The position numbers and the translations under genes were made by a program. The notes beneath the pieces are model-generated. The model had not been told where the DNA came from. It was given only the letters and a program-made list of their open reading frames with translations, and did not search any database. From a virus (taxonomy: Duplodnaviria; Caudoviricetes), in IMG/VR virus record IMGVR_UViG_3300021387_000452: a DNA stretch of 64,000 bases; one strand, given 5' to 3'. Positions within the stretch are counted from its first letter, which is position 1. Every line of letters begins with the position of its first letter. Positions 188 to 62,501 of the stretch are shown here, one piece after another.

Positions 188-1141
188 TTAATAAAGTCTC
201 TTAAGTCTACGATTTATATATAAACTTTCAAGACGTGAGAGTCGCTTCTCAAGATCAGCTAGATATTCTTCTTGCTCATCTGGCTCAACTGGCTCTTCAT
301 AAGTGTCTGTTTTATCGCTCTCAAGACTACCGGCTACAGCGTCTTTAAGCTGATCAACTTCTCTATCAGCCATTACTTCTTTTGCAGCGTCGACATCAAT
401 ACAGAGCTCATTCTCAATCTCTTCATCAGACTGAAGTAAACCAACTTTTGCAGAAATACCTTTGGCTAAATCAACAACTACACAATCATCAACTAATGAA
501 ATAACAGCCATTAAGTTATCATTGTCATCATAGCACTCAACAACAGAATCAGAAAAGTCTTCATTCTTACTTGATTTCCAACTGTAATGCTCACGAAGCA
601 TACCTTCAATCTTTCTAAGAATAAAAGCTCTCTTTTCTCTAATAGATTCCATAGTAGGACGCTCACCAGTCTCGATAGCGTCATTTAACTCATCAAGCTT
701 ATCATCAAACATTCTACCACTCTCCGTTGCCTTATTATTAATATAGTCAATTAAGGCATTCTCTGCTTCTTTATCAGAATTGAAGCCCTTTGACTTGATT
801 AAAAATCTATCTGATATTCTATTCTGCAGCTCATACTGAACAAGCTTAGTAGCAAGCTGATTAAAGTCACTAATAGATTTCACTTTCTTAGTGCTCTCTT
901 TATCCTGTTCTTCTTTGCTTAGTATATCTGTTATGTCTATATTGTCATTAAATAAGAGCAATTCTAATGAAATAGACGCATCATTAAATGTAGGTGTAAT
1001 TTCTATAGACAGCTCACCAGAGTTGCTAAATCTTGTTGGGCAAGATACAGATAAAGTATTTTTATTAATCAGCTTTGCTGGAAATAGCTCAGAGTTACCG
1101 ATTGCAGATTCCCATATCTTTTTCCAATCTATATCTGGCAT
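188..1141 (-). CDS. hypothetical acidic protein downstream of capsid gene (possible head/core protein)
   Basis: 317-aa ORF with GGAG RBS; C-terminal LEKRLSRLESLY motif shared with other proteins in the window. Confidence 0.75.
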   Translation of the reverse strand: MPDIDWKKIWESAIGNSELFPAKLINKNTLSVSCPTRFSNSGELSIEITPTFNDASISLELLLFNDNIDITDILSKEEQDKESTKKVKSISDFNQLATKLVQYELQNRISDRFLIKSKGFNSDKEAENALIDYINNKATESGRMFDDKLDELNDAIETGERPTMESIREKRAFILRKIEGMLREHYSWKSSKNEDFSDSVVECYDDNDNLMAVISLVDDCVVVDLAKGISAKVGLLQSDEEIENELCIDVDAAKEVMADREVDQLKDAVAGSLESDKTDTYEEPVEPDEQEEYLADLEKRLSRLESLYINRRLKRLY

Positions 1142-1267: not shown

Positions 1268-2764
1268 TTAGTGGCGACCAAGTTCACCATTAAGAATTCT
1301 ACCACGGACATACATAGCTGGGTTGAGCATCTTTACACCATAGTAGCTAACGAGACCCTGACGGCCAACAAAGTCATCGAGCATTACAAGATCAGTCTTT
1401 GTAATTGGGAGGAAGTCCGCAACTACGAAGCCGGCATCCATATCTGAGCCCTTGTAACCAACGAGGTAAGAATCTTCTGGAACGTATGGTGAGTAAATAA
1501 CTTTGATCTGACCTTCGATTTCACCAACAACGAACGCGCCATTGTTAGGAAGTGTAGCGCCAGTAGCTTTGAAATGATCGGAACCAGCTGATTTAATAAT
1601 GTTGAGGCCCATACGACCAACAACAACCCAGTTACCAAAGCCACGTTTTGTTTCAAAGTTGATCTTAGAAGCACAAGCAAAGATTTCGCTTAAGAAGCTG
1701 AGATCATGTTCGTGCTGTGAAATGTAGGATGTAACCTGACGATCCCATGTTGAGGTGTTCTTGGCCTGACGCATGAGGATGCTAATAACTTCATTATCAC
1801 GTTCCTGACGGATTTCAGCTGTACAAGCATTAACGAGAGCTTCTTCAACGTTGATACCATGAACTTTAGAAAGAGCATAGGAAGCGTCGAATGCGAAGTT
1901 TGCGCGAATCTTGTGAGGGACAGCTTTGATCATCTCTGTACGGAGACGAAGTTCAAGACTCTCAGTCTCAGAAGGAACGTGAGAAAGATCCTGGAAGTAT
2001 GTGAGTGAAACAGTGTCTGTTGCAGCAATTGTTTCACCAGAGTTACCAAGCTCTAAAGTAAACTCACCACTCTCTGGATTAATTTCAAATGATGGAGCAG
2101 TTCCAGTAGCAGCTTTTAACTCAGTGAAGCAACCATCAGCGTCAACTCTTCCAACTACCCATGGATCATCATCATGCTTACGACGAGCACGATATGTAAC
2201 CATCGCTGATTCATTATGGATGTCGATTGGAGTCTCAGGTTTTACCTTAACTGGTAAATGCATCATAAAACCAGTAACTTTTGTAGTTGAGTCACCTGAC
2301 GCTGGCTTTACATTAACAGGTTCTTCACTAATGCGTTCGCTAGCGGCCATAATACCAGCATCAGCACCACGCATTGCACCCCACTGATCGATGGCGATAC
2401 CATCTTTCTTAGCGTTACCACGAGTATTGCCATAGGTGTACTGTAAGAAACGAATTACACCAAGAGGAGAATCGATTGACTGAACGGAAACGATATCATC
2501 AATGATCTGGCTTGCATAAATTGCACTAACCATATCGATGGAGTGCTCAGGGAACCAGTCAATGCTATTATACTGAGAAGCAGGAACGCCATCAACTAAA
2601 GATTCATTCTTTACATTACGAATGGCTTTAAGATCTGAAAGGGCTTTATTAGTATTATTGAGAACGTTTGCAAGTGTGGCTTTAGCATCATCACTCATGC
2701 CACCACGAATAGACTCAACTACACTAATCTTGTTTTGAAAAGCTTCAACAACGACGTTATTCAT
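1268..2764 (-). CDS. major capsid protein, T4 gp23-like
   Basis: gp23-type motifs IVSVQSIDSPLGVIRFLQY, GFGNWVVVG, YLVGYKGSDMDAGFVVADFLP, GLVSYYG; AGGAGG RBS; follows the prohead protease. Confidence 0.93.
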   Translation of the reverse strand: MNNVVVEAFQNKISVVESIRGGMSDDAKATLANVLNNTNKALSDLKAIRNVKNESLVDGVPASQYNSIDWFPEHSIDMVSAIYASQIIDDIVSVQSIDSPLGVIRFLQYTYGNTRGNAKKDGIAIDQWGAMRGADAGIMAASERISEEPVNVKPASGDSTTKVTGFMMHLPVKVKPETPIDIHNESAMVTYRARRKHDDDPWVVGRVDADGCFTELKAATGTAPSFEINPESGEFTLELGNSGETIAATDTVSLTYFQDLSHVPSETESLELRLRTEMIKAVPHKIRANFAFDASYALSKVHGINVEEALVNACTAEIRQERDNEVISILMRQAKNTSTWDRQVTSYISQHEHDLSFLSEIFACASKINFETKRGFGNWVVVGRMGLNIIKSAGSDHFKATGATLPNNGAFVVGEIEGQIKVIYSPYVPEDSYLVGYKGSDMDAGFVVADFLPITKTDLVMLDDFVGRQGLVSYYGVKMLNPAMYVRGRILNGELGRH

Positions 2765-3809
2765 ATGAAAACCTCCTGAAATGTGAACACATTCTTTCTA
2801 AAATAGAAGTATCTTTTTTATCGAAAATATTTTCTGTTCTAAGACTTTCGTTAAACTTAGAGTCATCCCTAAATTTATTGATACTTAGATCATCACTGTC
2901 GTTACATTTAATAGATATTGGGTTTGATTTTTGCTGAACTTTTGAAGATGACTCATTAACAATCTTGGTCTGAGGAGCTTTAGTTCTACGCTCTTTAGCT
3001 TCAGTAATTAACTGCTTTGCTTCTTTTATAAGATTAGATAATTTGTCTTCATAAGTTACACGATTGAATTTCTTCAAAGAAGCATCTAATGATTCTGATA
3101 AACGATTTACAGACTCCAACATTGCATTAATATTGATCTTGTTCTCTCGTTTGCAGATCTCATTATCCAATGTTCTAATACGAGATTCAAATACTGGATT
3201 CTTAAATGACTTCAAAGCTGCAGATGACTCTTTAAGCTCTGATGTAGTCATTTTCTCTAAAGGTTTAGATATTGGATCAGCTTTTTCTAAACGAGCGCAT
3301 TTAAAGCCAGGCTCAGTAACAGCATCAAAAGTAATAAGCTCATATGAGTTTTCAAGGATTACTTCATGGCCGTCTTTCTGAATAGAATCAGCTACTGCTC
3401 TAGCAGATATACCGAGCTTAGTACCATATTGAGCTAACGTATTAAGAATTCTACCAGTTGGAGTATCAAGAACATCAAACTCGCCATAAAGAAGATTGCC
3501 ATCTCCATCTGGAACCCAGAGTCTCTTACAAGCAATACCCACTTGTGGATAGCTAATGTCAATGCGATTTTCAGGGTGACCACCTTCACCCAGCATTGAT
3601 CTGTTCTTAATACACTCTTGAACTGTAGGGTTATGTAATATCCGATCTTCTACTAATTTACGTGAATAAATTCTGTTATTTCTATTGACCGCGCCGAACT
3701 CCATGCACGGGCCGACTAATGTACAAAGAACTCCAGAAGTCTTATTCTCATTCGTAGTCTTCATTTCGGATATAATTGATTCAGTAAAAACCTTCATTAT
3801 ACCCTCCAA
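2757..3809 (-). CDS. prohead core protease, T4 gp21-like, with long C-terminal helical extension
   Basis: NRNNRIY, LGEGGHP, LDTPTGRIL, LGISARA (catalytic Ser region), ITFDAVTEPG. Confidence 0.92.
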   Translation of the reverse strand: MEGIMKVFTESIISEMKTTNENKTSGVLCTLVGPCMEFGAVNRNNRIYSRKLVEDRILHNPTVQECIKNRSMLGEGGHPENRIDISYPQVGIACKRLWVPDGDGNLLYGEFDVLDTPTGRILNTLAQYGTKLGISARAVADSIQKDGHEVILENSYELITFDAVTEPGFKCARLEKADPISKPLEKMTTSELKESSAALKSFKNPVFESRIRTLDNEICKRENKININAMLESVNRLSESLDASLKKFNRVTYEDKLSNLIKEAKQLITEAKERRTKAPQTKIVNESSSKVQQKSNPISIKCNDSDDLSINKFRDDSKFNESLRTENIFDKKDTSILERMCSHFRRFSYE

Positions 3810-14500: not shown

Positions 14501-14625
14501 ACAGCTTGTGATAAATCTGCTGAGTCGATATTGTTGACATATTCTGATATTAAAATAATACCGTCTATAGTTACTTGTGATGAAGCAACAGACTGACCAT
14601 AAGTAGTTAGTTCAGCTATAAACAT
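8542..14625 (-). CDS. long tail fibre protein
   Basis: 2027 aa, Ser/Thr/Asn-rich; fibre repeats (ATSGSYNDLSNKPTIP, SAFNNDAGYLTS, ETDPTVPAWAK, YDLGSSSYRW); adjacent chaperone gene. Confidence 0.88.
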   Translation of the reverse strand: MFIAELTTYGQSVASSQVTIDGIILISEYVNNIDSADLSQAVLDIDACGSINKNSGSVRVIDTSSNVYAIRTILFYTLSGSTKKVVAGYSQEESFILKTAGVLNVLLPFDFSVFTNGFLFATVQSGYSNAAHNTDGVLHIENPDTNADDNYSVYSKTQVDDLISDVSYTAGDGISLSNNVIKTTGIPFGICDSTSTSTKFTVTVPGIYKLEDGVTCMVKNGVVSSASGFTLNVNGLGAKPCYTNLAASTRDTTIFSAAYTMLFVYDSTRVSGGCWICYRGYDSNTNSVGYQLRTNSTVMNVSDTARYYKLYFTSANCNLWVPASVNSTNDTTTARAVNQRPINPFGRIVYTSANTNYAVGANLAATTIWDQYNLALGYSFNVNGGTLALTAEKPVYVKCAPQTDGSAIIDATNPTVQDLPASSDGNIYIFLGTATSATAVELFQNHPVYYHDGNGIKLWSGVVLPSKTSDLTNDSGFITEEDIPTNVSAFNNDAGYLTSYTETDPTVPAWAKQATKPSYTLDEVTDGSTRKLSNYIPTTRKVNNKALSSDITLNLDDVLDGSTRKLNNYVPYSEVISTINGFDNRRLWQYEIHNTLWAANKRYDVTLTGFSNNNASASLFDGSFETNVVVPKSGSGVILIAGKNNTKMWGGGYPYGYLEVAFYYTNVPESVTCRVYSDWTQNPGWHDVTLTNVCKNSNQALYRGVNTSFYGVTQVEITVNAKDSVTANVTEVAFYQTRGTLQQMSVFNKTVAQTLYHDLTGTKFIVSGGTSSQFLKADGSLDSSAYITSASIPTNVSAFNNDAGYLTSHQSLSSVVASAQYNSTSKKIEFYNPSGTKLNTDIDASAFIKDGMVDTVEVSGGNLVITFNTDAGKEDIEIPISDIFDANNYYTKAQVDGLIPTVNNAKLTIKKNASDTGTEFTANASTNVTCNLGLATVATSGSYNDLSNKPTIPTVNDTTITIKKNTSDAGDSFTTNTATAKTINLGLSTVASSGSYNDLSNKPTIPTVNNASLTINKGGTDDTGSKTFTANASSNVTINLGLSTVASSGSYNDLSNKPTIPTVNNSTITIKKNSDDTGDSFTTNASSGKTINLGLATVATSGSYNDLSNKPTIPTVNNATLTIQKNGTTVKTFTANASSNVTANITVPLESISVDGTAQTITDKNVDLHIPDDVTSYEVLGSFYRNNVSGSGNISIPAANCKGLFPSMPTAGTYRVRVQMYSSTASYTLNVSYGSGNSYSLTSSGGIINDERTLTIAAGSSWSATLVSSVGANTVIIVRVYKTSSSVVTEVGAAAVSNSYFDLDDIPAGVSYFTNDANYVTSSRKINNKALSSDITLTLDDVADGSTRAIPAKTTARSDGKYLYNGQTVDTMIGNFGISNSANLLNTSGVTSYVAVRSDASNPLIGLKCGTNLWYCQASQDKFYFGPTSAKALMMDQNGNGTFRSGSCTAAGFKYVNGTTTGTSSDFLKADGTIDSTVYLTSADLPTNYVTTNTAQTISGNKTFTGTLTGNLTGNADSASKLKLLGNSTDESYPVVFAESINSSTSSPASKSIYTDTVNSLKYNPSTNTLTTDTFSGSLELLNSGKYIKLTNADFGYTKISPSFTASPDTSNVYIETFDSSKVRVSSLAISSTIATDSYGYIIPYSGNWYIGNSNKHFHGAYIDNLYVTSNGTLLSTYIAGIQVTNATNLSYSSTAKLTATSSQVTAKDDIIPNTDPTTSSTGYDLGSSSYRWRYVYSNFFLGSPVIPYGTASWDSTNSYWNVSSISPAVNFVHSGMIIAIYFNASNTHSSPKLKLPNITDYSMTRDGGNPIGTTVNTSWASGATVLFRYVGSGWRMISTNSYSASTVSGNTNIIPSSDNSYDLGSTSYKWQNLYISGGNSNNHYIAIDNTGGEPTIRPEKSNYCYLGTSSYRWYKGYINSVFLKYDINIYLIRINAQSTNSSYYQVINRGEDLSVSGTSYYTVNSVKILRMYNSGSTIYGVDPTSGYKDTTSQTAPSNLTGSIRLLTQVYINSTSAANYIALAIIS
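11200..11920 (-). repeat. tandem ~55-aa (165-bp) repeats in tail fibre shaft
   Basis: Four to five copies of TVNNxxLTIxKN...FTxNAS...NLGLxTVAxSGSYNDLSNKPTIP; 11438-11518 and 11603-11683 are identical over 81 bp except one base. Confidence 0.9.
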
Positions 14626-24563: not shown

Positions 24564-25250
24564 TTACTTTTTGTAACGAGAGACCAGTGAACGTTTAGCA
24601 GGTTGCTTAGTTGATTCATTCTTTGCTCTTCTTGCTGGACGCTTTTTGGATTCGAAGTCTTCATCATCTTCGTCCCAATCTTCATCATCTTCGTCTTCCC
24701 AATCATCATCTTCATCATCATCCTGAACTGATCTATATGGATCAACATTTGCAAACTTGTCCATACGATCATGAACAAACCAACGGTCTTCATCATCCAT
24801 ATCAGCATAGTAAGTATCTAAATACTCATCAATATCTCTTTCACCAATCCAGTCATGTGCATCATAATGATCAAGAATTTCACGACAGATGTCATATGAA
24901 TTGTAGCTAGGATTTTCATCTTCGTCATCCATATCATCATCGTCCACATCATCCATATCTTCATTCTTTACAGACTTATCTGATGCTTTCTTTGATTCTT
25001 CAACTAAGTCAAGAGCGTCACAGACTGACCAAAGTTCATCAACTGACATCTGAGCAATAAGTTCTCTACATAAAGCTTCCATTGAAATATAACCATCAGA
25101 CGCAGCATCAAGCAAAATAACTGCTGGATCGTCAGCGCTTTCATTCTTAATAAGATTTTCAAGTCGAGTAAGACGTTTTTCTAAAATAGTTTTACGCTTG
25201 TCATTGTCGATAATCTGTTTAGCTTTATCCATTGCTTCATTCTTTGTCAT
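24564..25250 (-). CDS. highly acidic putative prohead core/internal protein
   Basis: Immediately downstream of portal (the position of T4 core genes 67/68); Asp/Glu tracts; four KNE sites; LEKRLTRLENLI motif. Confidence 0.65.
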   Translation of the reverse strand: MTKNEAMDKAKQIIDNDKRKTILEKRLTRLENLIKNESADDPAVILLDAASDGYISMEALCRELIAQMSVDELWSVCDALDLVEESKKASDKSVKNEDMDDVDDDDMDDEDENPSYNSYDICREILDHYDAHDWIGERDIDEYLDTYYADMDDEDRWFVHDRMDKFANVDPYRSVQDDDEDDDWEDEDDEDWDEDDEDFESKKRPARRAKNESTKQPAKRSLVSRYKK

Positions 25251-25267: not shown

Positions 25268-26788
25268 CTACATATTAAAATCAAAATCTTCTTCTTCAGA
25301 TCCCTCATCACCAGCTTCTCCATCTGGAGACTCTTCATCTGAAGATTTATCTTCACTCTTTACGAACTGCTCTAAATTAAGAGCATCTATAATGTCTTCA
25401 TCATTAGATACTCTATTGAGTAGTGCAGCTATAAGTTTAGCTTTATCTGCATTCTCAAAAATGCCTTCATCAACATTTTTCACTAAGTCAAGGATTGAAC
25501 CAGTAGTTTCAATCTCTGCTTTTTGAATATCTGATAAACGAGTATCCTCAGCTGTTAGAATTCTTGGCATCTCAACAGTAAAGCTTGGCGGCAATATGTT
25601 GTGAATAGAACAATACCAGTATATTAGATCTTTTAATCCAGATTTAATGATGCGTTGACATCTTTTTACTGTTCTTGCATAGCGAATGTCTAACTGAGTT
25701 AGAGTCGTATCTCCGATTCCACCAGGGGCTTCATCTGACTGACCTAAGAATTGCTTAGGAACTTTCAATGCACCATAATAACGATCGTCAAAGTAATCAA
25801 TATCAGCTAATGCTGAAACATTAACTTCACCGCCAACTTCCTGAACTGTTACTGCACCCTGACCATTACGAGTTGGGAAATAAACATTACCACCTGTTAA
25901 AATAGGTGAAGATCTTGAACTAAATACCTCAGTACTAACATTGATCGATTGCTTTGATGAAACAGCAGTTTTTAACTCACGAATCATTCTTGCTGTATCT
26001 TGTGATGAAGCTGCGCCGACATCTACAGAAAACAATCTATAAAATGATGATCGTGTTAATCTAGCAAGAATTAAAAGATCATCTAATAGCTGACGCTGTT
26101 TATAGTACTGCCTTGCCGCCTCAAGAAATGATGATCCATACTGGATATATGAATCAGAAGATAGTGCATCTCTATTTGCTCTATCAGAGATGAAATGAAT
26201 AAATGATCGCTCTGGAAGCAGCTTATCATTATCAATAGCTGATTTATCTTTGCTCTGTGGCTGATATAAATAGCCTAGAGGAACACCATAGCGATATATG
26301 TGAACTACATCTTCTGGCTCTGCTAATGTGAAATAATCACCTACATTGTACTCTTTTCTATAGTCTATATTGGAATAGTTAGTATCAACAAAACACTCAC
26401 CAAAAGTGACTACGTTAAAAGCTAGTGGGTAAATAATATCATTGATCCTAAACTTGTTCTTAAGAAATGATGTCATCATCTCTGCAAAGTCTGGATTATC
26501 GGCAGATTCTACCCAAGCGGCTAAGCCAGTATCAGAATCTATAAGAGAAGCATCTTCTGATATGAGCTCAACAGCTGATAATGTAACGCCATCTTTGAGC
26601 ATTTCACGATAGTCTTTAATCTTAGATTGTCGATCATTAGACAGCGTCCTCAAAGATGTCAGAATGTTATTATCTCTGTTTAGAAAGATATTCTCAAGCT
26701 TATCATCCCTAACATCATTTGTATCTTTAATGACTTCAACTCTGTTAGAGAGACCAAACATATTTCTGAAAAATGATTTAAGTGACAT
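25268..26788 (-). CDS. portal protein, T4 gp20-like
   Basis: YGSSFLEAARQYYKQRQLLDDLLILARLTRS, RLFSVDVG, DIDYFDDRYYGALKVPKQFL, DIRYARTVKRCQ. Confidence 0.92.
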   Translation of the reverse strand: MSLKSFFRNMFGLSNRVEVIKDTNDVRDDKLENIFLNRDNNILTSLRTLSNDRQSKIKDYREMLKDGVTLSAVELISEDASLIDSDTGLAAWVESADNPDFAEMMTSFLKNKFRINDIIYPLAFNVVTFGECFVDTNYSNIDYRKEYNVGDYFTLAEPEDVVHIYRYGVPLGYLYQPQSKDKSAIDNDKLLPERSFIHFISDRANRDALSSDSYIQYGSSFLEAARQYYKQRQLLDDLLILARLTRSSFYRLFSVDVGAASSQDTARMIRELKTAVSSKQSINVSTEVFSSRSSPILTGGNVYFPTRNGQGAVTVQEVGGEVNVSALADIDYFDDRYYGALKVPKQFLGQSDEAPGGIGDTTLTQLDIRYARTVKRCQRIIKSGLKDLIYWYCSIHNILPPSFTVEMPRILTAEDTRLSDIQKAEIETTGSILDLVKNVDEGIFENADKAKLIAALLNRVSNDEDIIDALNLEQFVKSEDKSSDEESPDGEAGDEGSEEEDFDFNM

Positions 26789-29314: not shown

Positions 29315-32300
29315 CTAGTTGTCAGAATCTTCTGAATATAGAAGATCATAATAGAAGACTTTATTAGATGATGTCCAATATGGTGACTTTGGTACTTGAT
29401 TAACTCTATATCTGTTGTATACTGAGCTCCACTGGTCTTTTGTAATCTCTGAATGTTGCGTTACTACTCCGGCACTCTTAGTTGTATAAACTAAAGTACC
29501 TGGATCTAGATCAACTGCAAATGTACCAGATGTAAATGCAGTTGTACCAATTGTCGTTGGCGTAGCTACTTTAACAGTAATTGACGCAGTACTTACGTTG
29601 CTATAATCATCTGTAACAGTTACTGTAAATACGTAAGTAGTCTCTGGAATTGTGTTCTCTGGTATTTTGAATGTCTTTTGCTCATCATTTATTGAAATAA
29701 GATGACTTGCTTCTGGCCCACTCCAAACAACAGTATAACTATCACCATCAACATCAATAACATCTATGCTCAATGTAACAGTATCTCCAGGGTTACCTTC
29801 AACTAGAGGTGTAAGTACAGTAATTCGCGGAGCTGTATTTGCATAATATGACGCATTAACTGAAGTTGTTGCTGTGCTAGATGCTCCGAAATTATCTGTA
29901 ACTGTTACTGTAAATGTGTAAGTAACATTCCCAGTAAGATTAGCTGGTATAGTAAAAGTAGGATTTGCTGAAGATGTACTTGAGAATTCTCCATCATGAT
30001 TGCAAGACCATTCGTACGCTATTGTATCATCACTATCTGGATCTGATGCATTTGCATGTAATGTAATAATAGCTCCCTGATGACATGTAGTAGGTGATGC
30101 TTCAGGATGAGCAATCGGCGCATGGTTAATAGATGCCTCATCTGTTATGTAGCATCGCGCACTTACACCGCTAAGAAGCTTATATAATAAGTGATCTAAA
30201 TTCCACTTAATTTCATGAGTGTCTTCGCTTATTGTGTACACAACACCTTTAGGAACTATAAAAGTATCTACACCAACAGACGCGTTGAATGAAACTATTA
30301 CACCATTTATGTCACTGTCAACGCTATGTTCAGGGCTCATGTAGAATCCAGGCTTAGAACTATACGTATATAATCTAAATGAATCTGGTGTAAATGGCGC
30401 AGTACTATCACTGTCAAGAATTTTCACATCAGTGTATTGACCAGAGCCGCTAATTGGCTGAAGATCATCGTTCTTCATTGATTCAGTCGGGAGGCTTGGC
30501 CAGTACTGTGGATCATACCAATTAGTGTCTGAGTGGCTATTAAACTGATATACCCAATAATAATCGGTTGCGATAGCTTTGTCACTATACTTCATTTTAC
30601 CAATAAATGGCTTAAGATCATCATTCAAATCAGATAAATCACTTGAATAATTATCATATATTGTATATATGTCTTCTAGCTCAAGCGCATTTCCATCACC
30701 GCTGTCATCATATAAGCTGTTTAGAATACTACATATTGTTGACGCTGGTGTAATTATACTAATGATGTCACTAACTGGAACACTGCTCTTGTTTGTTTTG
30801 AAAGATCTAATGACAACCGAACTCTTAAGATCTGCGTCTGTTATAACGCTCTCAATCTCACTAAGACTAGTCTTATTACAGTCAATCATATGAGCAATGT
30901 ATTGCTGCTTAAATTCACCATTATCTGTGATTTCAGAATTTACAGTATACAAACTTACATTGAGAATGTCAATTATACCATTGAACTTATTATAGTCTGA
31001 TGGATTTGTGCATAGATATGCCAATTTCTGAAGAGTAAAGTATTCATTGAGATATAAATGGCTGATAACGTTATCTCTATTGTCTGATTCAGTGTTGACA
31101 AGACTAGAGAACAGCTGCTTATTGTATGGTGATGTGAATACCTTGTCAATGCATTTATTTCTTTTAGTATCATCTGCGATATCGCATACATCTTTTAAAT
31201 CAACTTCGCCATCACTAAATAATACATTTACTACTCCATCATAGACGTTTGTAAGTCGTGAATCAGTGATAAGTGTATTGAACTTGTTTCCATTATTAAA
31301 TGGCTCTTTATTTTTCTTATACAGATACGCAATGATATTGTAGCATTGATTGCTTGTGAATGTGGCTAACTTTGATATGTCATAATTTTTAAGTAGCAGA
31401 TCATAAATCTTATCATTATGTTCATACTCAATATATTTCACAATAAATCTACTGCCTGGACCACTACCCCAAGTATAGCTCTCGCTAAGCCAGCTGTAAA
31501 TGTTATCGTCTGTTACAGAATAACGCAGCAGAGCATTTACTACTGAGTGCCACTCATGAGCAAAAGCAATCTCAAACACATCACCAAGCGATGAACTACC
31601 CACTAAGTAGTGGCATAGCTTTTCAACTAGCATTTCATCTTCATTATCAACAGCAACAGCTAATGCAGACTTCTTACTATCATCATCTGTGCCACATTCT
31701 CTAAGAATATATGAGGCTCTATTAGTTTTAACAAGAGTGCCAAGAATATAATCAACAGAAGCGTAGCACGACATCATGCACGCTGAATAAAGAAGTGTAA
31801 TGTCATAGCTATCAGTAATTTCGGCATAGTCAGAAAAGCTAGTTCTACTGCCAAGAGCTTCTAAAATATCAGACTTTGGGAGCTTGGCAGCCTCACTCAA
31901 ATCGGCTTTAGTAACAGTAGCTGGTGTATTTATCTTAGTAGTCGCTTTAAGATAAGCTACAGCATACTGTGGCTGATATTCATAGTCCCACACATACTCA
32001 AACTTGTTTCGTATGTCTTTACATTCTTCGTCTTTCTTGTGAATCTCTGACCCATCAGCGTTGCACTGCTTTATAGGATTACCTTCATCATCACGCATTG
32101 GCGAATGTGTACCATCATCCTCGTACTTATAAACTATGTTATAGCTCACTAACTCTGGCGGAATTGGAAAGACTTCACCATCTTTTACAAGTCTACCTAG
32201 TTGCTGAGTCACTGGCTCTGCAGTAACAGATAAAGGGTCTTTAAGATTGCTTGGATCTAGTGGATAAACTACTCCATTAGTATCTTTTATATATATCACG

Positions 32301-32731
32301 TTATCTTCATCGTCGCGAGCTGGAACTGGATTATCATCAGCATCCTTCTTTGGCTGTTCACTTTCTTGAGCTTCAGTTGTAGAATCAACTACCTCTTCAG
32401 TTGTATCGTCATACACATAAACATCATTACCAATCAGAGCATCAACTGACTCTTTACAGCCAGACATGATTGCGCACTGAAGTGGAGTCTTACCTTTACC
32501 GCATTTCTTAGACGGCGCACAACCATGTTCTTTTATAAGGCAAACAATCTTATCTGGCTTAATACCATTCATAGCCGCAAAACAAAGTGGAGTATACCCC
32601 TCTGAGTCATTAGAATTGTATGTCCATGATGAATCTATAGCTATGCATTTGCCATAAAGCTCACTTATTGCTTGTTTTGTCTTTAGATCATCAGCAGTGT
32701 ATGTAATTTTTGGTGGTGTTTCATCAGGCAT
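29315..32731 (-). CDS. ankyrin-repeat protein with two C-terminal PKD/Ig-like domains
   Basis: GYTPLCFAAMNG, GKTPLQCAIMSG, TLLYSACMMS, SALAVAVDNE ankyrin repeats; NHAPIA...ASDPDSD..AYEW...YTFTVTVTD-type domain occurs twice. Confidence 0.85.
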   Translation of the reverse strand: MPDETPPKITYTADDLKTKQAISELYGKCIAIDSSWTYNSNDSEGYTPLCFAAMNGIKPDKIVCLIKEHGCAPSKKCGKGKTPLQCAIMSGCKESVDALIGNDVYVYDDTTEEVVDSTTEAQESEQPKKDADDNPVPARDDEDNVIYIKDTNGVVYPLDPSNLKDPLSVTAEPVTQQLGRLVKDGEVFPIPPELVSYNIVYKYEDDGTHSPMRDDEGNPIKQCNADGSEIHKKDEECKDIRNKFEYVWDYEYQPQYAVAYLKATTKINTPATVTKADLSEAAKLPKSDILEALGSRTSFSDYAEITDSYDITLLYSACMMSCYASVDYILGTLVKTNRASYILRECGTDDDSKKSALAVAVDNEDEMLVEKLCHYLVGSSSLGDVFEIAFAHEWHSVVNALLRYSVTDDNIYSWLSESYTWGSGPGSRFIVKYIEYEHNDKIYDLLLKNYDISKLATFTSNQCYNIIAYLYKKNKEPFNNGNKFNTLITDSRLTNVYDGVVNVLFSDGEVDLKDVCDIADDTKRNKCIDKVFTSPYNKQLFSSLVNTESDNRDNVISHLYLNEYFTLQKLAYLCTNPSDYNKFNGIIDILNVSLYTVNSEITDNGEFKQQYIAHMIDCNKTSLSEIESVITDADLKSSVVIRSFKTNKSSVPVSDIISIITPASTICSILNSLYDDSGDGNALELEDIYTIYDNYSSDLSDLNDDLKPFIGKMKYSDKAIATDYYWVYQFNSHSDTNWYDPQYWPSLPTESMKNDDLQPISGSGQYTDVKILDSDSTAPFTPDSFRLYTYSSKPGFYMSPEHSVDSDINGVIVSFNASVGVDTFIVPKGVVYTISEDTHEIKWNLDHLLYKLLSGVSARCYITDEASINHAPIAHPEASPTTCHQGAIITLHANASDPDSDDTIAYEWSCNHDGEFSSTSSANPTFTIPANLTGNVTYTFTVTVTDNFGASSTATTSVNASYYANTAPRITVLTPLVEGNPGDTVTLSIDVIDVDGDSYTVVWSGPEASHLISINDEQKTFKIPENTIPETTYVFTVTVTDDYSNVSTASITVKVATPTTIGTTAFTSGTFAVDLDPGTLVYTTKSAGVVTQHSEITKDQWSSVYNRYRVNQVPKSPYWTSSNKVFYYDLLYSEDSDN

Positions 32732-36990: not shown

Positions 36991-37998
36991 CTAACCTTCA
37001 CTATCGTCAGTTAAAGCATTCTTCAATTCAATAAGAGTTGGAACATAGTTTCGCTTAAAGTGATGCTTTAAAAAGCTCTGAAAATCATTCCACATTAAAG
37101 TACCACCAGAAAGTTTATATTCATCATATAGTGCTTTCTTCTCTTGCTTTTGTCTTTTAACTGTGTCAGATATTTTCTTTCTATGTTCTAAATCTGACAT
37201 AACTCTCTTAGCAGAATCTGACATCTTTGATTTAGTTTCATCTGTAGTGATACGCTTACGTCTAGCAATACTAAGCTTCTTCCTATGTTCATCGGAAAAT
37301 TTTCTACCTGAATTAGCTTTGCTAATCTTCTTCCTAGTATCTTCAGATGTTTTATGACCTAATAACTTTTCAACTCGCTTAGCTATAGTTTCTGCTGATT
37401 GCTTTCTGCCAGTACATCGTTCACTTTGCTGTCTACGATGCTCTTCGATTGACCAGTAAGCATTAGATTTATCTCTTATTCTCTGTAAAGTTTCTTCATC
37501 ATAGTGTTTACCATAGAATGGATGTGCAGCGCCTACACACTTACCCTTTCTACTTATACTTATACGTTTTCGCGTCTCTTCAGTTGGTGACAGTCCTTTA
37601 TTCCATGGAATGTCTCCTTTCTTAAACTCACGCCCGCGTCTAGCGTCTTTTCTTGAAAGTCTAATTCTTTGAGAATTACCTATCTTTTTTCTAGTCTCTT
37701 CTGATACTGTGTGTATAGCTGAATGCTCTTCTGGAGTTACAAAGATGATATACTTACCATATTCAAAATGCTCATTCCCATCTTCATTAATTTCAAATCC
37801 CCAGAGTTCATAGTGTTCGTCATTATATTTTCTTTGTTCTTCAGTATCACGAAGATGATGGCGAACCGTAGCATTAGGATCAGGATTATACTTTAATGAT
37901 TTCTGAATTTCTCTAGAAGCAATGTCATATTTATGATTTACAGAAAGCCAATCTTCTTGGCAAGCATTGCGCCACTCTTTAATGTTCATAAGCTTCAT
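36991..37998 (-). mobile_element. free-standing HNH homing endonuclease with NUMOD3 repeats
   Basis: N-terminal VRHH...FVTPEEHSAIH HNH-like core; many NUMOD3-like motifs (HPFYGKHYDEET, GRKFSDEHRKKLS, SEETRKKI, PWNKG). Confidence 0.8.
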
Positions 37999-43078: not shown

Positions 43079-43810
43079 TTACTCGATAAAGTTGTCTAAG
43101 AAGTGGTCAATGAGATTATCTTTTGCTGTATTTAAAGAATTTGATATAGTACCAACGACTTTCCCGTTATACTCAGTCTTAAAGCTGTCTATATCGTCAG
43201 CAATGATTGTATATTCAGCAATAAGATCTGGGTTATAAATACCAACCACAGCTATGCCAAGATTAGCATATTTGCTATCAACTTCTACAACAACACCAGA
43301 GTCATATTCATCAGATAGAGAGTCTTCAATATCTTGTCTTATGCTTTCACAGTCCATACCACTAAGAGACACAGCTTCTAATTTACGTGTTCTTTTTTCA
43401 TACTGTCTCTTTCTATTATTTTGCAGTATTTCAAGAATGAACTTCGCTACAGTGTTTACATCTTTATCAAGACTGAATGGCTTAAGAGTGTCTATCTTAA
43501 GATTATTTTTATCAAATGCTGTACAATACATATTATTTCTATCAGGCCCACTAATGATGAAGCTTACGTTATTATATGCATCGTCAGCTGTAAGAACAAG
43601 ATGAAACTGCTGCTTTTCACCAGTCTTTGTTGGTGCTTCACTTGTATGAAGAACTTTTCCGATTGTTGGATATTTACTAAAGAGCTTGTTTGTAAATGCT
43701 GGCTCATCTGATCTCTTTGGTTTGCCAAAACCAAGAAATTCATTTTTCTGTTTACCATTGATGAGTCTTTCTAATCGACTCACTCTATCTTCAAGAGTAG
43801 GTCTTTTCAT
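43079..43810 (-). CDS. hypothetical protein with LEDRVSRLERLI leader (putative head-packaged protein)
   Basis: MKRPTLEDRVSRLERLINGKQKNEF N-terminus. Confidence 0.7.
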   Translation of the reverse strand: MKRPTLEDRVSRLERLINGKQKNEFLGFGKPKRSDEPAFTNKLFSKYPTIGKVLHTSEAPTKTGEKQQFHLVLTADDAYNNVSFIISGPDRNNMYCTAFDKNNLKIDTLKPFSLDKDVNTVAKFILEILQNNRKRQYEKRTRKLEAVSLSGMDCESIRQDIEDSLSDEYDSGVVVEVDSKYANLGIAVVGIYNPDLIAEYTIIADDIDSFKTEYNGKVVGTISNSLNTAKDNLIDHFLDNFIE

Positions 43811-43821
43811 ACGATCACCTC

Positions 43822-44163
43822 TCAGTCTTCATCATCTTCGTCATCTGCATAATAGTCTACATCAGCAGAGTAGCCGAGTGTGTATAGGTCACCACATACT
43901 CCGTTTAATAGAGCATAGATGCTATCTCCGGCTTCTGGATCTCCGCCAAAGTCTTCTATAGCTTGATCACATTTTTTAGCATCATCTAATAGAGCATTAA
44001 GAGTTTTCCATGATTTCTTTACAGCAACTAGTATTCTATCAAATGGAGCTCTAGCATTATCATCATTTGCGATGCTTGTGTATAAGCCCTCATTTTTAGT
44101 TCTTGAAATTTTTAGTAAATTTTCTAATCTAGATATCCTAGACTCTAAAGTAGACTTTTTCAT
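43822..44163 (-). CDS. hypothetical acidic protein with LESRISRLENLL leader (putative head-packaged protein)
   Basis: MKKSTLESRISRLENLLKISRTKNEG N-terminus. Confidence 0.7.
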   Translation of the reverse strand: MKKSTLESRISRLENLLKISRTKNEGLYTSIANDDNARAPFDRILVAVKKSWKTLNALLDDAKKCDQAIEDFGGDPEAGDSIYALLNGVCGDLYTLGYSADVDYYADDEDDED

Positions 44164-54780: not shown

Positions 54781-56646
54781 TTATAAGTCATATTTCTTTT
54801 TATTTTCTGGAAGTGCAGCCCATTGATCATATTGTCTCTTCAGTTGTCTTGCTGTAACAGAGTGTTCATTAGCCGGATCATTCAGCGCATCTTGAATTTT
54901 ATCATTATCTAAGATTGCTGGATTTTCATTTATGGCCTGTCTAACACTAGTAGACATAGTATCATTTGCTATATGATGTACTATTGATCTCACTAGTTTA
55001 GCATCATTTGACTGCTGAGTATTATCAGTTATTATATCGTTTGATCTTAATACAGATCTGCATACGTCTGACATATATAATTCTTTAGCTAAATCTTCAC
55101 CAATACCAGCATCAACCATTGCATCAATGAAACGATAATTTGTAGACTGAGCTATAGTATAAATATCATATCTTCTTATTAAATTAGTATATGGTCTAAG
55201 TTTTCTACACACTAGTCTAACTAGTAAATCACTAGGGTTATAATTCCTAGCTTCTCTGCAGAATGTGCTTATAACGTCTGATACATCTTCTGATTCTGGT
55301 GCTTTAAACTTTAGCTTAGTAAGACATTGTACAAGCGCTGATGAATTGCCTCCAAAATAACGCTCTGTATAAATAACTGATTGTAGCATTATCCACTGAT
55401 CTTTTGCATTAAATGCATCAAATGAGCTCTGTGTTAGTATATCACTTAGTATAGAAGGTGACTTATTATACTCGTTGCAAATAGCAACTACAGCTTTACA
55501 GAGCCCAGCCAAATTAAAAGCAGTTATAGATCCATTACTTACTTTCTCTGCTAAGTCATATATCTTATCAGCTATCTGTTTATTATTACTAATTTTTTTA
55601 ACATAGTAACTGCTATCATCAAACAAAATTGCAACACCATTTCTTTCTAGAGCATCTGCAGTCAGTGACCAGTATGTACTATCTAAATCTGGATGTAAGC
55701 GACGAGCAGCACTTTCTTTTCCAAGCGCTTTAACAGTAACATCTACTAGATGATTTACATATGAAGTAGCATTGTCTAGCTTATTATAGCCAAAGCCTAG
55801 TAAGCTAGTTAAATTACCGCTATATAGATCGCTGCGCTTATTAAGCTCTTTAATATAATCTTCTGTGATCATATTATTTACTTCATTTGTGCTAAATAAA
55901 CCGCTTTCTATAATGCTAAACATTAATGCGCGATCATCTTTTCCTCTGACTGCAAGATTAGCGCCTGCGTTAGCTAGCGCAATAACACCGTCTTTATTTC
56001 CATACATAACTGTGCAAACGACAGCTGGTCTTACCGGGCACTTTTCGTTTGGATTAGCGCCGTTGTCTAGAAGAAGCTTAATAACTGCTCCAGTGTCACC
56101 TTTTCTAGCAATGCATGCTACCATTAAAGGTGTTCTACCTTTGTCGTCTTTAGTATTTACATCGACTCCTTCATCAAGAGCAGCTTTAACTTCTTCTGGC
56201 TTCTTTGAAAAGATGTTAGCTTTTACTCTTCTTGCTCTAGTGGCTCTCGTTGGTGCTGATGGCTCTTCAGCTGTATCGTCACTATCTAATGAACTAATAT
56301 CTGGAGCATTTCTTAAATCGTTCATAAGCTCTTGCTGAGCCGTACGTGGAATAACGCCGACATCGTCCCACGCGTAATCAGCATTTGCTGAAACATTGTT
56401 ACCATTTTTATTTAATAGTCCATTGTCAGCAAAAAAGTTTATATACTTAGTGATATCTTTAGGGAGCTCAGACTTTAGCTGATCTACAGTCTTATCACCA
56501 TTATCAATTAAGTGCTTCCATATAATATATGCTTTAGATGGCTCATTTCCTCTACCCATTGTTCTCTCAACGTAGAGTCTTTCAAGCTTAGCAACTTTAC
56601 GGTCTAGCTTATATTTATCTACAAGTTTCATATCTATCAACCTCAC
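54781..56646 (-). CDS. winged-helix-like + ankyrin-repeat protein (paralog A)
   Basis: GVDVNTKDDKGRTPLMVAC...VIKLLLDNGANPN ankyrin repeats; N-terminal ~100 aa highly similar to 56653-58530; likely start MKLVDK (56631). Confidence 0.85.
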   Translation of the reverse strand: MRLIDMKLVDKYKLDRKVAKLERLYVERTMGRGNEPSKAYIIWKHLIDNGDKTVDQLKSELPKDITKYINFFADNGLLNKNGNNVSANADYAWDDVGVIPRTAQQELMNDLRNAPDISSLDSDDTAEEPSAPTRATRARRVKANIFSKKPEEVKAALDEGVDVNTKDDKGRTPLMVACIARKGDTGAVIKLLLDNGANPNEKCPVRPAVVCTVMYGNKDGVIALANAGANLAVRGKDDRALMFSIIESGLFSTNEVNNMITEDYIKELNKRSDLYSGNLTSLLGFGYNKLDNATSYVNHLVDVTVKALGKESAARRLHPDLDSTYWSLTADALERNGVAILFDDSSYYVKKISNNKQIADKIYDLAEKVSNGSITAFNLAGLCKAVVAICNEYNKSPSILSDILTQSSFDAFNAKDQWIMLQSVIYTERYFGGNSSALVQCLTKLKFKAPESEDVSDVISTFCREARNYNPSDLLVRLVCRKLRPYTNLIRRYDIYTIAQSTNYRFIDAMVDAGIGEDLAKELYMSDVCRSVLRSNDIITDNTQQSNDAKLVRSIVHHIANDTMSTSVRQAINENPAILDNDKIQDALNDPANEHSVTARQLKRQYDQWAALPENKKKYDL

Positions 56647-56652
56647 TATTAA

Positions 56653-58530
56653 TTAAAGATCATATATATCTTGATCTTTAGGCACACGCTCTGCTCTTCT
56701 TCTAAGCTGTCTTGAAGTAGTTGTATCATTATCTTCAATAGCTTTAGCAATGCTGCTATCTAACAAGATTTCAGGATGATTAGTTACAAATGCTTCAAGT
56801 TCTCTACTCCACTCATCATTTTCAATAGCGTCAACGATTTTATTAATCGCAATTTTACTATTTCGTCTATTCTCTGCGCCGGCTACAATATTTCTTCTAG
56901 AATCGCTGTCATCTGGTACTTCAAACCCATTCTCTTTAAGAACTTTTATCACAGCAAATTCATTATCTGTGTGACGATTATCTATGCACCATGCTAATAA
57001 ATCTTCACCATAACCCATGTCAATTACGTAATTTATTAAATATTCATTTTCACATTCAGCAACATCAGAAATTGTAAATCTATTAAGTTGAGTATTTCTA
57101 TCGATAAGTCTTGTAGCCAGTCTTGTTATTTCTTCATTTGCAGATTGCAAGTAACGATTGTCACACACTGTATTTGCACCGATCTTAACTTTAGCAGCTA
57201 CTAACTTTGACAACGTGTTTACATCATTGCTCTCAACAGCATCACGAAATAGTGATCTTATATCGCTATCTGATAAGTTAGATAGAAATGCTTGGCTAAG
57301 CAAGTTGCTCATAAAAGATTGATCATTTGCTCTTTTACAAAGAATTCTGCATGTTTCGATAAAATCTAAAGCTCCCCACTGTATTGAAAGCTTACCATCG
57401 ACAACCTTACCGCATAGATCAAGTAATTGACGAGCAATGCTGGGTGATATGTCATTATTACTAACTGCCCAATTCAAGCGCGCTAATATCTTTTCTTTAT
57501 CAGCAATCTTTTTAATAGTGTTTAGAATTTCGTGACTGACTTCATACTCTATAACATCGAATGAGTATCCGCCAAATTTACAGCTATCTAGTATGTTGTT
57601 TATGATCTGCTCATATTGCTCTTTTGAGATTATTTTACGTGCATATGCAGTATAATAAAATCTATGTACTCCTTGATTAAACTCATATCTTTCTTTTGAC
57701 GCTGCTAATAATATGATATCTTTATTATTTGGCACATCTTTATAATACCACTTAATATCTGAGCTTGGGTTATTAATGACGTTCTGTGTATCATTAGCAA
57801 GAATGACTTTCATTGCGTCAATGTTATCGTTTTTACATGCAAGATCAAATGCATTAAAACCTTTAAATACAGAATTCAAATTTGCACCATGAGTTAAAAG
57901 ATACTCAATGATATCAGAATTATTTCCAGCTTTGGAATTTGCAGCAAATAATAACGGAGTCTGGCTTTTATCATTAGTTTGATTTACATCTTGACCAGCA
58001 TCAACCGCGGCCTTAACTTCATCAAACTTTCTAGAAAATAAATTTTGCTTTACTGCTCTCTGGCGTGGAGCTCTTGCTGATCTAGTAGGCTGTTCTTCTG
58101 GTATATCTGTAGCATCTGGAATTCCACCATCTCTAAGAGAATTTATCATCTCTTGTTGAGCAGTTCTTGGAATTACTCCAACATCATCCCATTTATAGTC
58201 AGCATTAGCTGATATCATATCTCCATCTTTAATCAAGAGATTATTATCAGCATAGAAGTTAATAAAGTTTGTAATGTCTTTTGGTAAAGCTGACTTCAAA
58301 TCTGAGACTGACTTTGGGCCGTTATTCATTAGATAGTCCCAAATCTGATATGCCTTTGAAGGCCCACCACCTCTACCAACTGATCTTTCTGTAACTAGTC
58401 TTTCTAGCTTAGCTATCTTCTTCTCTAATTTATACCGATGTAACAAATTGCTTTTCATAATTGAACACCCTCTTGCTGCAGTGACTATACTACATAATCT
58501 AACTACACTATTTGATATTTCTTCACACAA
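56653..58530 (-). CDS. winged-helix-like + ankyrin-repeat protein (paralog B)
   Basis: GQDVNQTNDKSQTPLLFAA...IIEYLLTHGANLN, GFNAFDLACKND; likely start MKSNLL (58458). Confidence 0.85.
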   Translation of the reverse strand: MCEEISNSVVRLCSIVTAARGCSIMKSNLLHRYKLEKKIAKLERLVTERSVGRGGGPSKAYQIWDYLMNNGPKSVSDLKSALPKDITNFINFYADNNLLIKDGDMISANADYKWDDVGVIPRTAQQEMINSLRDGGIPDATDIPEEQPTRSARAPRQRAVKQNLFSRKFDEVKAAVDAGQDVNQTNDKSQTPLLFAANSKAGNNSDIIEYLLTHGANLNSVFKGFNAFDLACKNDNIDAMKVILANDTQNVINNPSSDIKWYYKDVPNNKDIILLAASKERYEFNQGVHRFYYTAYARKIISKEQYEQIINNILDSCKFGGYSFDVIEYEVSHEILNTIKKIADKEKILARLNWAVSNNDISPSIARQLLDLCGKVVDGKLSIQWGALDFIETCRILCKRANDQSFMSNLLSQAFLSNLSDSDIRSLFRDAVESNDVNTLSKLVAAKVKIGANTVCDNRYLQSANEEITRLATRLIDRNTQLNRFTISDVAECENEYLINYVIDMGYGEDLLAWCIDNRHTDNEFAVIKVLKENGFEVPDDSDSRRNIVAGAENRRNSKIAINKIVDAIENDEWSRELEAFVTNHPEILLDSSIAKAIEDNDTTTSRQLRRRAERVPKDQDIYDL

Positions 58531-61598: not shown

Positions 61599-62501
61599 CT
61601 AATCAGGCTGACCTGCCTTAGGTCGTTTGTTTTCTACTTTCATATGAGGTAATCCACACACTTTGAAATGCTCAGGGTGCTGCTGATAATCAGCTTCAAG
61701 TGATTCAACAAATGACTCCAATGAATCTGTTGCGTACCTGAAAGTATTCTTTATTTTATATGGATATCGGACATGTATGCGGAAGTATTTGTTCTTTTGC
61801 TTATCGTAATAGACATCAATAACAGTGCTATCACCCCACTTTCTATATATTAGATAGTTATAGAAATTGATCTTACTCATTGGAGTGTTAACAGATTTCT
61901 TATTTACCCAATTCGGCTTTGCATGACCAATCCAATTATGAGTTTGTGTCTTAATTCCATTCTTTACGCATTCCATCTGCATGTCTATGTCTTCATAACC
62001 TTCAATAGAGTAGCGTATAGAATTCACTGTAAGATCGAGAAAGACAGCTGCCCATATAAATCTATTTGAAAACATCGGTGCATCTAGAGCGTGATTAAAC
62101 ATCACTCCACTCATTGTCATTCCGCCAAGCCCAGTCTCATCATCAAACTCTAAGCTTTTAAGACATACTTTTCCATCATGAACAACATTATCTTTGAATT
62201 CTTGCGATGGGCCACCAATTCTAAAGTTCATGATATCATCATCAAGCATCCAAAATCTTGAGATTCCATTTTGCTTACACCAGTCAATAATGTTATTCCT
62301 TCCCATGAATAGCTTTTCTCTACTTCCAATGTTTAGAACTTTGTGCTTATTTGGATCAAAACCAGATAAATTTTTTACTACATCATTTGCTGGAATATCT
62401 GGCCATGCTACAATATAAACGTCATCATCGATAAGTTCTAGCAGCTTTGATTTTCTTGTAATATCACCATGTAACATAAATACGGCTTCTGCAGTCTTCA
62501 T
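61599..62501 (-). CDS. GT-A glycosyltransferase, TET-associated (TAGT/GREB1-like) type
   Basis: GRNNIIDWC, FWMLDDDI (DxD), WAAVFLD, YEDIDMQMECVKNG. Confidence 0.7.
   Translation of the reverse strand: MKTAEAVFMLHGDITRKSKLLELIDDDVYIVAWPDIPANDVVKNLSGFDPNKHKVLNIGSREKLFMGRNNIIDWCKQNGISRFWMLDDDIMNFRIGGPSQEFKDNVVHDGKVCLKSLEFDDETGLGGMTMSGVMFNHALDAPMFSNRFIWAAVFLDLTVNSIRYSIEGYEDIDMQMECVKNGIKTQTHNWIGHAKPNWVNKKSVNTPMSKINFYNYLIYRKWGDSTVIDVYYDKQKNKYFRIHVRYPYKIKNTFRYATDSLESFVESLEADYQQHPEHFKVCGLPHMKVENKRPKAGQPD

Follow-up and report, generated by a model that had tools for sequence, protein, structure and literature searches.

Proteins encoded in different parts of a large phage genome carry the same short amphipathic helix at one of their termini. 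From sequence comparison we consider it probable that this helix is a lineage-specific tag, which targets its carriers to the capsid (to the prohead core) and is coupled to cleavage after Glu by a protease of the phage T4 gp21 type. The phage is represented by the IMG/VR virus record IMGVR_UViG_3300021387_000452 (Duplodnaviria; Caudoviricetes), and the analysis is centred on two neighbouring genes on the minus strand, 43079..43810 and 43822..44163, in a 64,000-nucleotide stretch of this record, called the window here (bases 6604-70603, reverse strand, of the 111,771-base record). The motif, its terminal position, its link to a K-N-E triplet, the presence of a gp21-type protease and the conservation and portability of the helix across related phages are established. 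The first-pass annotation of the window had proposed a portable and cleavable capsid leader on diverse cargo, which is injected with the DNA. All sequence-level predictions for such a leader held, namely the gp21-type protease, the terminal motif, the K-N-E shared with the capsid protein and the conserved peptide. The diverse injected cargo stood only in part, as several carriers (24564-25250, 188-1141 and a 168-amino-acid acidic protein, all described below) are likelier to be cut-up prohead-core or scaffold-like components.

Copies and conservation of the tag

The tag is a 12-residue amphipathic helix with the consensus L-E-x-R-(I/V/L)-x-R-L-E-x-L-(hydrophobic). Searching the six-frame translation of the whole 111,771-base record with the strict motif L[ED]x[RK][ILV]x[RK]LExL gave six matches, all in the coding frame of long minus-strand open reading frames (ORFs) of the window, with none in other frames or strands. 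The six peptides quoted in the first-pass annotation are all present, in frame and on the minus strand, in the ORFs named for them. The first Leu codons of the tags are at window positions 44148, 43795, 25184, 56607, 58428 and 253. For the protein set of the record (105 ORFs with 35,626 residues, start codons inferred) the expected number of strict matches is 0.0005 as the mean of residue shuffling and 0.0003 analytically, which puts the motif ~10,000-fold above chance. The regular expression was written after seeing the matches, so these odds are generous, and the excess is too large to be affected by this.

A hidden Markov model (HMM) built from the six copies found two further copies, both outside the window in the rest of the record. 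One is the N-terminal tag of a 94-amino-acid protein, with K-N-E 7 residues after the tag. The other is a C-terminal tag, followed by a basic tail, in a very acidic protein of 168 amino acids. Out of the eight copies, six are N-terminal, two are at the extreme C-termini and none is internal. The N-terminal tags start at ORF residues 5-35 as called, or at residues 5-23 with the likelier ATGs of two ankyrin-repeat genes, and the C-terminal tags end 12 and 17 residues before the stop. These counts cover the 111,771-base record, which is about half of a genome of ~221 kb, since a contig of 221,535 bases encodes one of the two focal proteins with 98% identity.

The core nucleotide identity between the tag copies is 44-69%. 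Identical residues are encoded by different codons, with CTT, TTA and CTA for Leu and AGA, AGG, CGT and CGA for Arg, and the Ser codons differ too. Because the codons of conserved residues differ between the copies, selection acts on the peptide. The tag is conserved as a peptide and not as a DNA element, and recent duplication does not account for its copies. A repeat at the DNA level or an element for translation initiation was considered as well and is ruled out by this nucleotide identity and by the C-terminal copies, which lie away from gene starts. Chance or a generic heptad is rejected from the frequency of the motif compared with shuffling and from three cultured phages with the closest capsid proteins (124-182 kb each), in which the tag profile described below has no match at E <= 1. 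The motif is therefore not at the background frequency that the first-pass annotation had considered for a generic coiled-coil heptad. The hydrophobic residues of the tag are spaced at positions 1, 5, 8 and 12, which spans less than two heptads, and the Glu and Arg residues on its surface are conserved. Several consecutive heptads, variable positions in the protein and loose conservation of the surface, as in coiled coils or leucine zippers, are not found.

The first focal gene, 43079..43810 (minus strand), encodes a protein of 243 amino acids with a leader helix, a linker containing K-N-E and two alpha/beta domains. Its tag is located at residues 6-17 (43760..43795, minus strand; detected by the regular expression and by the HMM, E-value 2.4e-8) and its K-N-E site at 43739-43747. 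The second focal gene, 43822..44163 (minus strand), encodes an acidic protein of 113 amino acids (isoelectric point (pI) 4.4) with the tag at residues 6-17 (44113-44148) and K-N-E at residues 23-25 (44089-44097). In both genes an ATG is found just before the tag, and the Shine-Dalgarno sequence AGGTGA is located 5 nt before the ATG of 43079-43810. The long ORFs of the window are all on the minus strand, and the GC content is ~35%. Antisense ORFs in 43254-43961 were rejected, because the homologues support the minus-strand genes. Both focal genes lie between the clamp-loader and nucleotide-kinase genes, with 43822-44163 directly after the clamp-loader gene.

For 43079-43810 we found 83 homologues, down to 40% identity. 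Across the 84 sequences of this family the tag residues E7, R9, L13 and E14 are 97-98% conserved and K22, N23 and E24 are 96-98% conserved; the four linker residues from the tag to the site have an average conservation of 63%, and the length of the linker varies by up to 9 residues. K-N-E is read in 80 of the 84 sequences and the other four still end in Glu. Two fixed elements with a variable spacer between them indicate two separate functions, one for the helix and one for the site, and this pattern fits tag and K-N-E being separate functional elements. The second focal protein has four homologues with 60-92% identity, in which L6, E7, R9, L13, E14, L16, L17 and the K-N-E are invariant. Scans of viral contigs with each focal protein singly gave no relatives, which were found only with the family alignment.

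In the AlphaFold2 model of 43079-43810 (18-sequence alignment, mean predicted local distance difference test (pLDDT) score of 77) residues 6-20 form a helix and residues 20-28, including K-N-E, are disordered, followed by the two alpha/beta domains. A Foldseek search of the PDB with this model gave nothing at E <= 0.001 and the ESM Atlas gave no useful match. The wide VIA-align search returned only matches with Z <= 7.5, which is within the noise of the tool (among them PsiB, type III secretion chaperones, anti-CRISPR-like folds and a phage P1 head chain), and no function is drawn from them. Searches of Pfam and PHROGs found nothing for the two focal proteins, 24564-25250 and 188-1141 beyond a sub-threshold coiled-coil match.

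The K-N-E site and the T4-type head proteins

Judged by its protein families the phage has a T4-type head, with a gp23-type capsid protein, a gp21-type protease and a gp20-type portal protein. The major capsid protein is encoded at 1268..2764 (minus strand; Pfam Gp23, 1.3e-36), the prohead protease of the T4 gp21 / S77 family at 2757..3797 (minus strand; ORF as called 2757-3809; Pfam S77, 8.5e-11; PHROG head maturation protease, 1.3e-35) and the portal protein of the T4 gp20 family at 25268..26788 (minus strand; Pfam Portal_T4, 5.9e-37). The residues His74 and Ser131 of the protease align with the catalytic positions 85 and 140 of T4 gp21 (5JBL), so that the catalytic His and Ser of a gp21-family protease are accounted for. 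The nearest cultured capsid proteins are those of Listeria phage LIS04, Streptococcus phage GXN1 and Bacillus phage HSE3, with an identity of only ~30%.

Enzymes of the gp21 type cut after Glu (PMC9026906, PMC10052503). T4 gp21 cuts after the Glu of a three-residue motif and strips the N-terminal propeptides of proteins that are retained in the head, and gp22, gp67 and gp68 of the T4 core are broken up by cleavage, after which the pieces exit the head (PMC9026906). The triplet K-N-E was found 23 times in our protein set, compared with 8.9 expected occurrences. It is located within 15 residues of four of the six N-terminal tags, where chance would give ~1% per tag (P ~1e-7), and in these four the distance is at most 10 residues. 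Furthermore, the tagged proteins, taken together with the capsid protein and an acidic neighbour, account for 8.7% of the residues and contain 12 of the 23 sites (P ~1e-7), and without the four leader-adjacent sites the enrichment in head-module proteins has a P of ~1e-4.

The capsid protein has V-K-N-E/S (the slash marks the predicted cut) at residues 51-55, with the K-N-E at residues 52-54 (2603-2611). In the capsid proteins of two of the relatives described below, G001 and G002 (~70% identical), M-K-N-E/S is found at the same position. The propeptide of T4 gp23 is cut near the corresponding place (PMC9026906), and the conserved N-terminal block aligns weakly with mature T4 gp23, which places the capsid K-N-E ~10 residues from the T4 maturation site. 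The capsid propeptide is predicted to end at K-N-E (residues 52-54), and K-N-E is the putative cleavage motif of the protease.

The protease has a C-terminal extension of ~180 residues (residues 170-346), is ~135 residues longer than T4 gp21 and may carry a fused scaffold-like domain in this extension. A degenerate tag-like stretch is located in it at residues 203-214 (3156-3191); it is invariant in three phages, as is most of the protein. All of the xNE sites quoted at first pass, VKNE-S at capsid residues 51-55 and IVNE-S and KFNE-S in the protease tail, were found again. The position of KFNE-S is conserved in the relatives, where its N-E (residues 316-317, within 2847-2858) is invariant in three phages, whereas IVNE-S lies in a variable stretch.

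Tag carriers in the window and in related phages

Besides the focal proteins, the window encodes four further tag carriers. The gene 24564..25250 (minus strand) adjoins the portal gene and encodes a very acidic protein of 228 amino acids (pI 4.2) with the tag at residues 23-34 (25149-25184) and four K-N-E sites. It is a candidate prohead-core protein, which would be cut into pieces like T4 gp67/gp68. Two carriers are ankyrin-repeat proteins. The first, 54781..56646 (minus strand; Pfam Ank_2, 2.8e-8), has its N-terminal tag at 56572-56607 (tag HMM E-value 2.6e-7), followed by V-E/R. Its paralogue, 56653..58530 (minus strand; Pfam Ank_2, 3.5e-12), has its N-terminal tag at 58393-58428, followed by T-E/R, and translation probably begins at the ATG located 10 codons upstream of this tag. 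The ankyrin leaders end in hydrophobic-x-E/R, and a homologue in the relative G003 keeps the tag, followed by L-E/R. A third ankyrin-repeat protein of the window, 29315-32731 (minus strand, 1138 amino acids), has its ankyrin repeats at the N-terminus and PKD/Ig-like domains at the C-terminus and is without a tag.

The gene 188..1141 (minus strand) lies directly after the capsid gene and encodes an acidic protein of 317 amino acids with a C-terminal tag at 218-253. This tag sits on an acidic tether and has a basic tail behind it, and four homologues all retain an internal K-N-E at residues 192-194. As modelled with AlphaFold2 (pLDDT 68, four sequences), 188-1141 has two beta-rich parts, long helices, a disordered acidic stretch at residues 271-287 and a low-confidence terminal helix at residues 288-316. 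A search of BFVD with this model found nothing at E <= 0.001. The term 'scaffold-like' for this protein is a label from gene position and composition and is not justified beyond that. The 168-amino-acid acidic protein with the other C-terminal tag lies after the adaptor gene and has two V-K-N-E-S sites.

The carriers had been described at first pass as otherwise unrelated, which is largely the case. The two ankyrin-repeat proteins are an exception, being full-length paralogues with 30% identity (E-value 2e-76). A faint similarity beyond the tag also links 43822-44163 to the 94-amino-acid protein (domain E-value 0.04) and to 24564-25250, of which it may be a remote paralogue. All other carrier pairs are alike in the tag only in the all-against-all BLAST comparison, and by this measure at least five independent carrier families remain.

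The family alignment of 43079-43810 located four phage contigs in IMG/VR and the capsid protein located more. The whole records of these relatives were scanned with an 18-column tag profile, with an E-value cut-off of 1 for G001-G004 and of 0.01 for G005-G009. G001 (156 kb) has 17 matches, G002 (204 kb, 95% complete) has 11, G003 (65 kb) has 5 and G004 (41 kb) has 4. With the stricter cut-off, 12 matches were found in G005 (103 kb) and 2-4 in each of the fragments G006-G009 (17-50 kb). We read the ORF context of 44 matches, among them every one of the strongest. Apart from a few of the weakest, and from the C-terminal tags named next, these start 1-8 residues after a plausible Met, and most of the tags near a Met are then followed by KNE, sometimes by VNE, RNE or YNE. 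The remaining examined tags are at the extreme C-terminus of homologues of 188-1141, of the 168-amino-acid acidic protein and of a cytidylyltransferase-like protein. Among the carriers of the relatives, the recognisable domains are ankyrin repeats, DUF6273 and a nucleotidyltransferase fold.

The cytidylyltransferase-like protein is a nucleotidyltransferase of ~205 amino acids with the tag at its extreme C-terminus, found in G002 (L035:928-1542:+; Pfam CTP_transf_like, 1.7e-5) and in G005 (L075:919-1536:+). It is an enzyme candidate for capsid loading. Tandem double tags are found at the N-terminus of two further proteins, in G002 (L010:967-1617:-), where KNE comes after the second tag, and in G001 (L029:1477-1995:+).

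The gene order of the window (clamp loader, 43822-44163, 43079-43810) is matched in G002 by the clamp loader, a gene for a 147-amino-acid protein (L022:1114-1557:-) and a gene of the 43079 family with its own leader. The 147-amino-acid protein is tagged at both ends, with KNE after the N-terminal tag. In P0073 and P0071, a protein of this G002 type and a 43079-family protein form a single ORF. Residues 1-135 of P0073 match the G002 protein with 67% identity, through to the C-terminal tag of the latter, and lead via K-R-E/F into the 43079-family domain. One helix would thus be both the C-terminal tag of the upstream domain and the putatively cleavable leader of the next domain. As read from these ORFs, the fusion shows that one and the same element is used at either terminus, and its arrangement would make most sense if cleavage does take place at the site.

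Three other features of the window were noted. The protein encoded at 61599-62501 (minus strand) matches Pfam TAGT, the TET-associated glycosyltransferase family (2.2e-10), which hints that the phage DNA may carry glycosylated modified cytosine. A protein with a NUMOD3 motif (7.2e-17) is encoded among the replication genes at 36991-37998 (minus strand) and is probably a homing endonuclease. An ORF of 2027 amino acids at 8542-14625 (minus strand) is followed by large ORFs of 867 and 775 amino acids in the structural region.

Proposed role of the tag and known systems

If the tag acts as we propose, a short flexible linker would tether it to its carrier, and while the head assembles it would keep the carrier within the protein core on which the gp23-type shell forms, possibly by binding to the tag-bearing proteins of the core itself or to the shell from inside. 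Cleavage by the gp21-type protease would follow, after the Glu in K-N-E or, in the ankyrin proteins, in hydrophobic-x-E, and the same K-N-E site would serve to remove the propeptide of the capsid protein. The mature protein would thereby be released within the head, from which small pieces and those cut several times would leave. Core binding, cleavage, presence in the virion and delivery into the host are the steps that we infer here.

In a d-a-d-a heptad register (positions 1, 5, 8 and 12) Arg4 would be at g and Glu9 at e, five residues on. This is the spacing of the inter-helix salt bridges of parallel coiled coils, and the tag would therefore be charge-complementary to itself. In the head cluster, tags are found on 188-1141 after the capsid gene, on the 168-amino-acid protein after the adaptor gene and on 24564-25250 after the portal gene. 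Together with the tag-like stretch in the protease, these tags suggest that cargo is recruited to the prohead core through pairing of its tags with those of the core proteins. Alternatively, the tag may attach to the shell on its inner side, in the manner of scaffold C-termini. Taken further, the tag could be a self-associating mini-zipper which is used at either end and links cargo, core and protease. It would then be a clade-wide address code, listing the 10-20 proteins that each phage loads into its head and delivers. The clade would be uncultured giant phages of gut and rumen and the cargo would comprise ankyrin-repeat proteins as well as nucleotidyltransferase-like and other enzymes. We put this wider reading forward tentatively and would sooner doubt it than rely on it.

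The closest known system is the capsid-targeting sequence (CTS) of the T4 internal proteins, reportedly treated by Mullaney and Black in 1996. The CTS of the internal proteins IPI, IPII, IPIII and Alt is removed by the prohead protease gp21 (PMC9026906, PMC3012670). Both phages have a T4-type capsid, portal and gp21-family protease, and in both a short terminal peptide is common to otherwise different proteins, whose genes are scattered over the genome. In T4 the peptide ends at a cut-after-Glu site that also serves the capsid propeptide, and the K-N-E after four of the six leaders and at the end of the capsid N-terminal region would be such a site here. T4 core proteins carry several sites, as do the core candidates of this phage, and in T4 Alt and gp21 are also processed at their C-termini. 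Unlike the T4 CTS, the tag is a 12-residue heptad-type helix with a linker of variable length to the predicted site, and it is found at either end, in tandem, on head-cluster proteins and, degenerate, on the protease. The number of copies differs as well, with eight in half a genome here and up to 17 matches in one relative.

The diverged gp21-type proteases of phiKZ (gp175), 201phi2-1 and SPN3US (gp245) cut many head and ejection proteins after Glu (PMC10052503, PMC5694885). As proposed here, mostly N-terminal propeptides are removed in these giant phages, and the protease is processed at its own C-terminus. Their propeptides differ in being mostly long (111-254 residues) and protein-specific, with no common consensus helix described, and their site is (S/A/G)-x-E, with cleavages shown by mass spectrometry, whereas ours are predicted from sequence.

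Encapsulin cargo-loading peptides are also short, portable and used at either terminus with a flexible linker, and they direct cargo to the interior of an HK97-fold shell. The likeness lies in a portable terminal peptide for unrelated cargo and is one of analogy only, not homology; portal, protease and DNA are all absent from encapsulins, and the loading peptide stays on the cargo. In phage scaffolds such as P22 gp8, a C-terminal helix with a basic tail holds the coat protein. Similarly, the C-terminal helix of 188-1141 and that of the 168-amino-acid acidic protein have a basic tail behind them, but no sequence or fold match was found, and the helix is reused here on non-scaffold proteins.

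Several observations weigh against capsid targeting with cleavage after Glu. The focal genes lie among replication genes and not among head genes, though the T4 internal-protein genes are also apart from the head cluster. Both C-terminal tags and both ankyrin leaders are without an adjacent K-N-E. Most predicted mature products are acidic (pI 4.2-5.4), compared with the basic, DNA-embedded internal proteins of T4. The identity of 188-1141 as a scaffold found no support in fold and sequence searches (Pfam, PHROGs and BFVD), and about half of the genome was covered. Moreover, the predicted site K-N-E, with its K-N preference at P3-P2, differs from the L/I-x-E of T4 and from the phiKZ-type motifs, and in sequence the tag bears no resemblance to the T4 CTS of 10 residues (IPIII CTS, PMC9026906). 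By this comparison the tag is a signal analogous to the T4 CTS and not a member of it by descent.

Some of the same observations could be explained if the tag were an element for core assembly or docking, or a protease exosite, and its carriers transient core components that are degraded and expelled instead of injected. The tag is indeed found on acidic head-cluster proteins with K-N-E sites (four in 24564-25250, two in the 168-amino-acid protein and one in 188-1141) and, in a degenerate form, in the protease extension, the mature products are acidic, and fragments of T4 gp22, gp67 and gp68 leave the head (PMC9026906). However, the large folded carriers with a single site, i.e. the 620-amino-acid ankyrin proteins and the two-domain 43079 family, look like cargo, as do the DUF6273 and nucleotidyltransferase-like carriers of the relatives. 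We regard this explanation as unlikely, and it overlaps with capsid targeting in that the proteins are in the prohead under both.

It is very improbable that the motif is an ordinary short coiled-coil oligomerisation helix spread by paralogy or convergence, with no link to the capsid and with a K-N-E that is coincidental or compositional. The hydrophobic spacing is that of a plain heptad, some carriers are paralogous and the only Pfam matches are to weak coiled-coil families (PUMA_CC, E-value 0.004; TolA_bind_tri, E-value 0.006). Yet the helix is confined to protein ends, its length is constant at less than two heptads and its solvent-facing Arg and Glu are conserved; its coupling to K-N-E (P ~1e-7), the same K-N-E in the capsid propeptide and the absence of matches from the three control phages also speak against it. 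Least probable of all is a tag for another destination (tail or baseplate, membrane, replication compartment) or for timed degradation, which the position of the focal genes between clamp-loader and nucleotide-kinase genes would suit, but within the structural module the tag is restricted to proteins of the head cluster, whose genes neighbour those of the capsid protein, protease and portal; it is missing from the homologues of sheath, tube and baseplate proteins, and the putative cleavage triplet is also found in the capsid protein.

Our literature search found the T4 and phiKZ-type precedents and no description of this tag motif. The principle of capsid targeting with cleavage after Glu is already known from T4, and the tag differs in its sequence, its helix, its linker, the K-N-E, its use at either end and the number of its carriers. 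To our knowledge, the binding partner of a capsid-targeting tag is an open question even for T4, and if the proposed role is right, the tag-bearing proteins of the head cluster would give a handle on it. A tag which works at either end with a separate cleavage site would be a tool, beside the T4 CTS, for packing foreign proteins into capsids. The injected proteome of many uncultured phages of gut and rumen would become readable from their genomes. Tagged proteins would be the first to meet the defences of the host, which would make them prime candidates for anti-defence and takeover functions.

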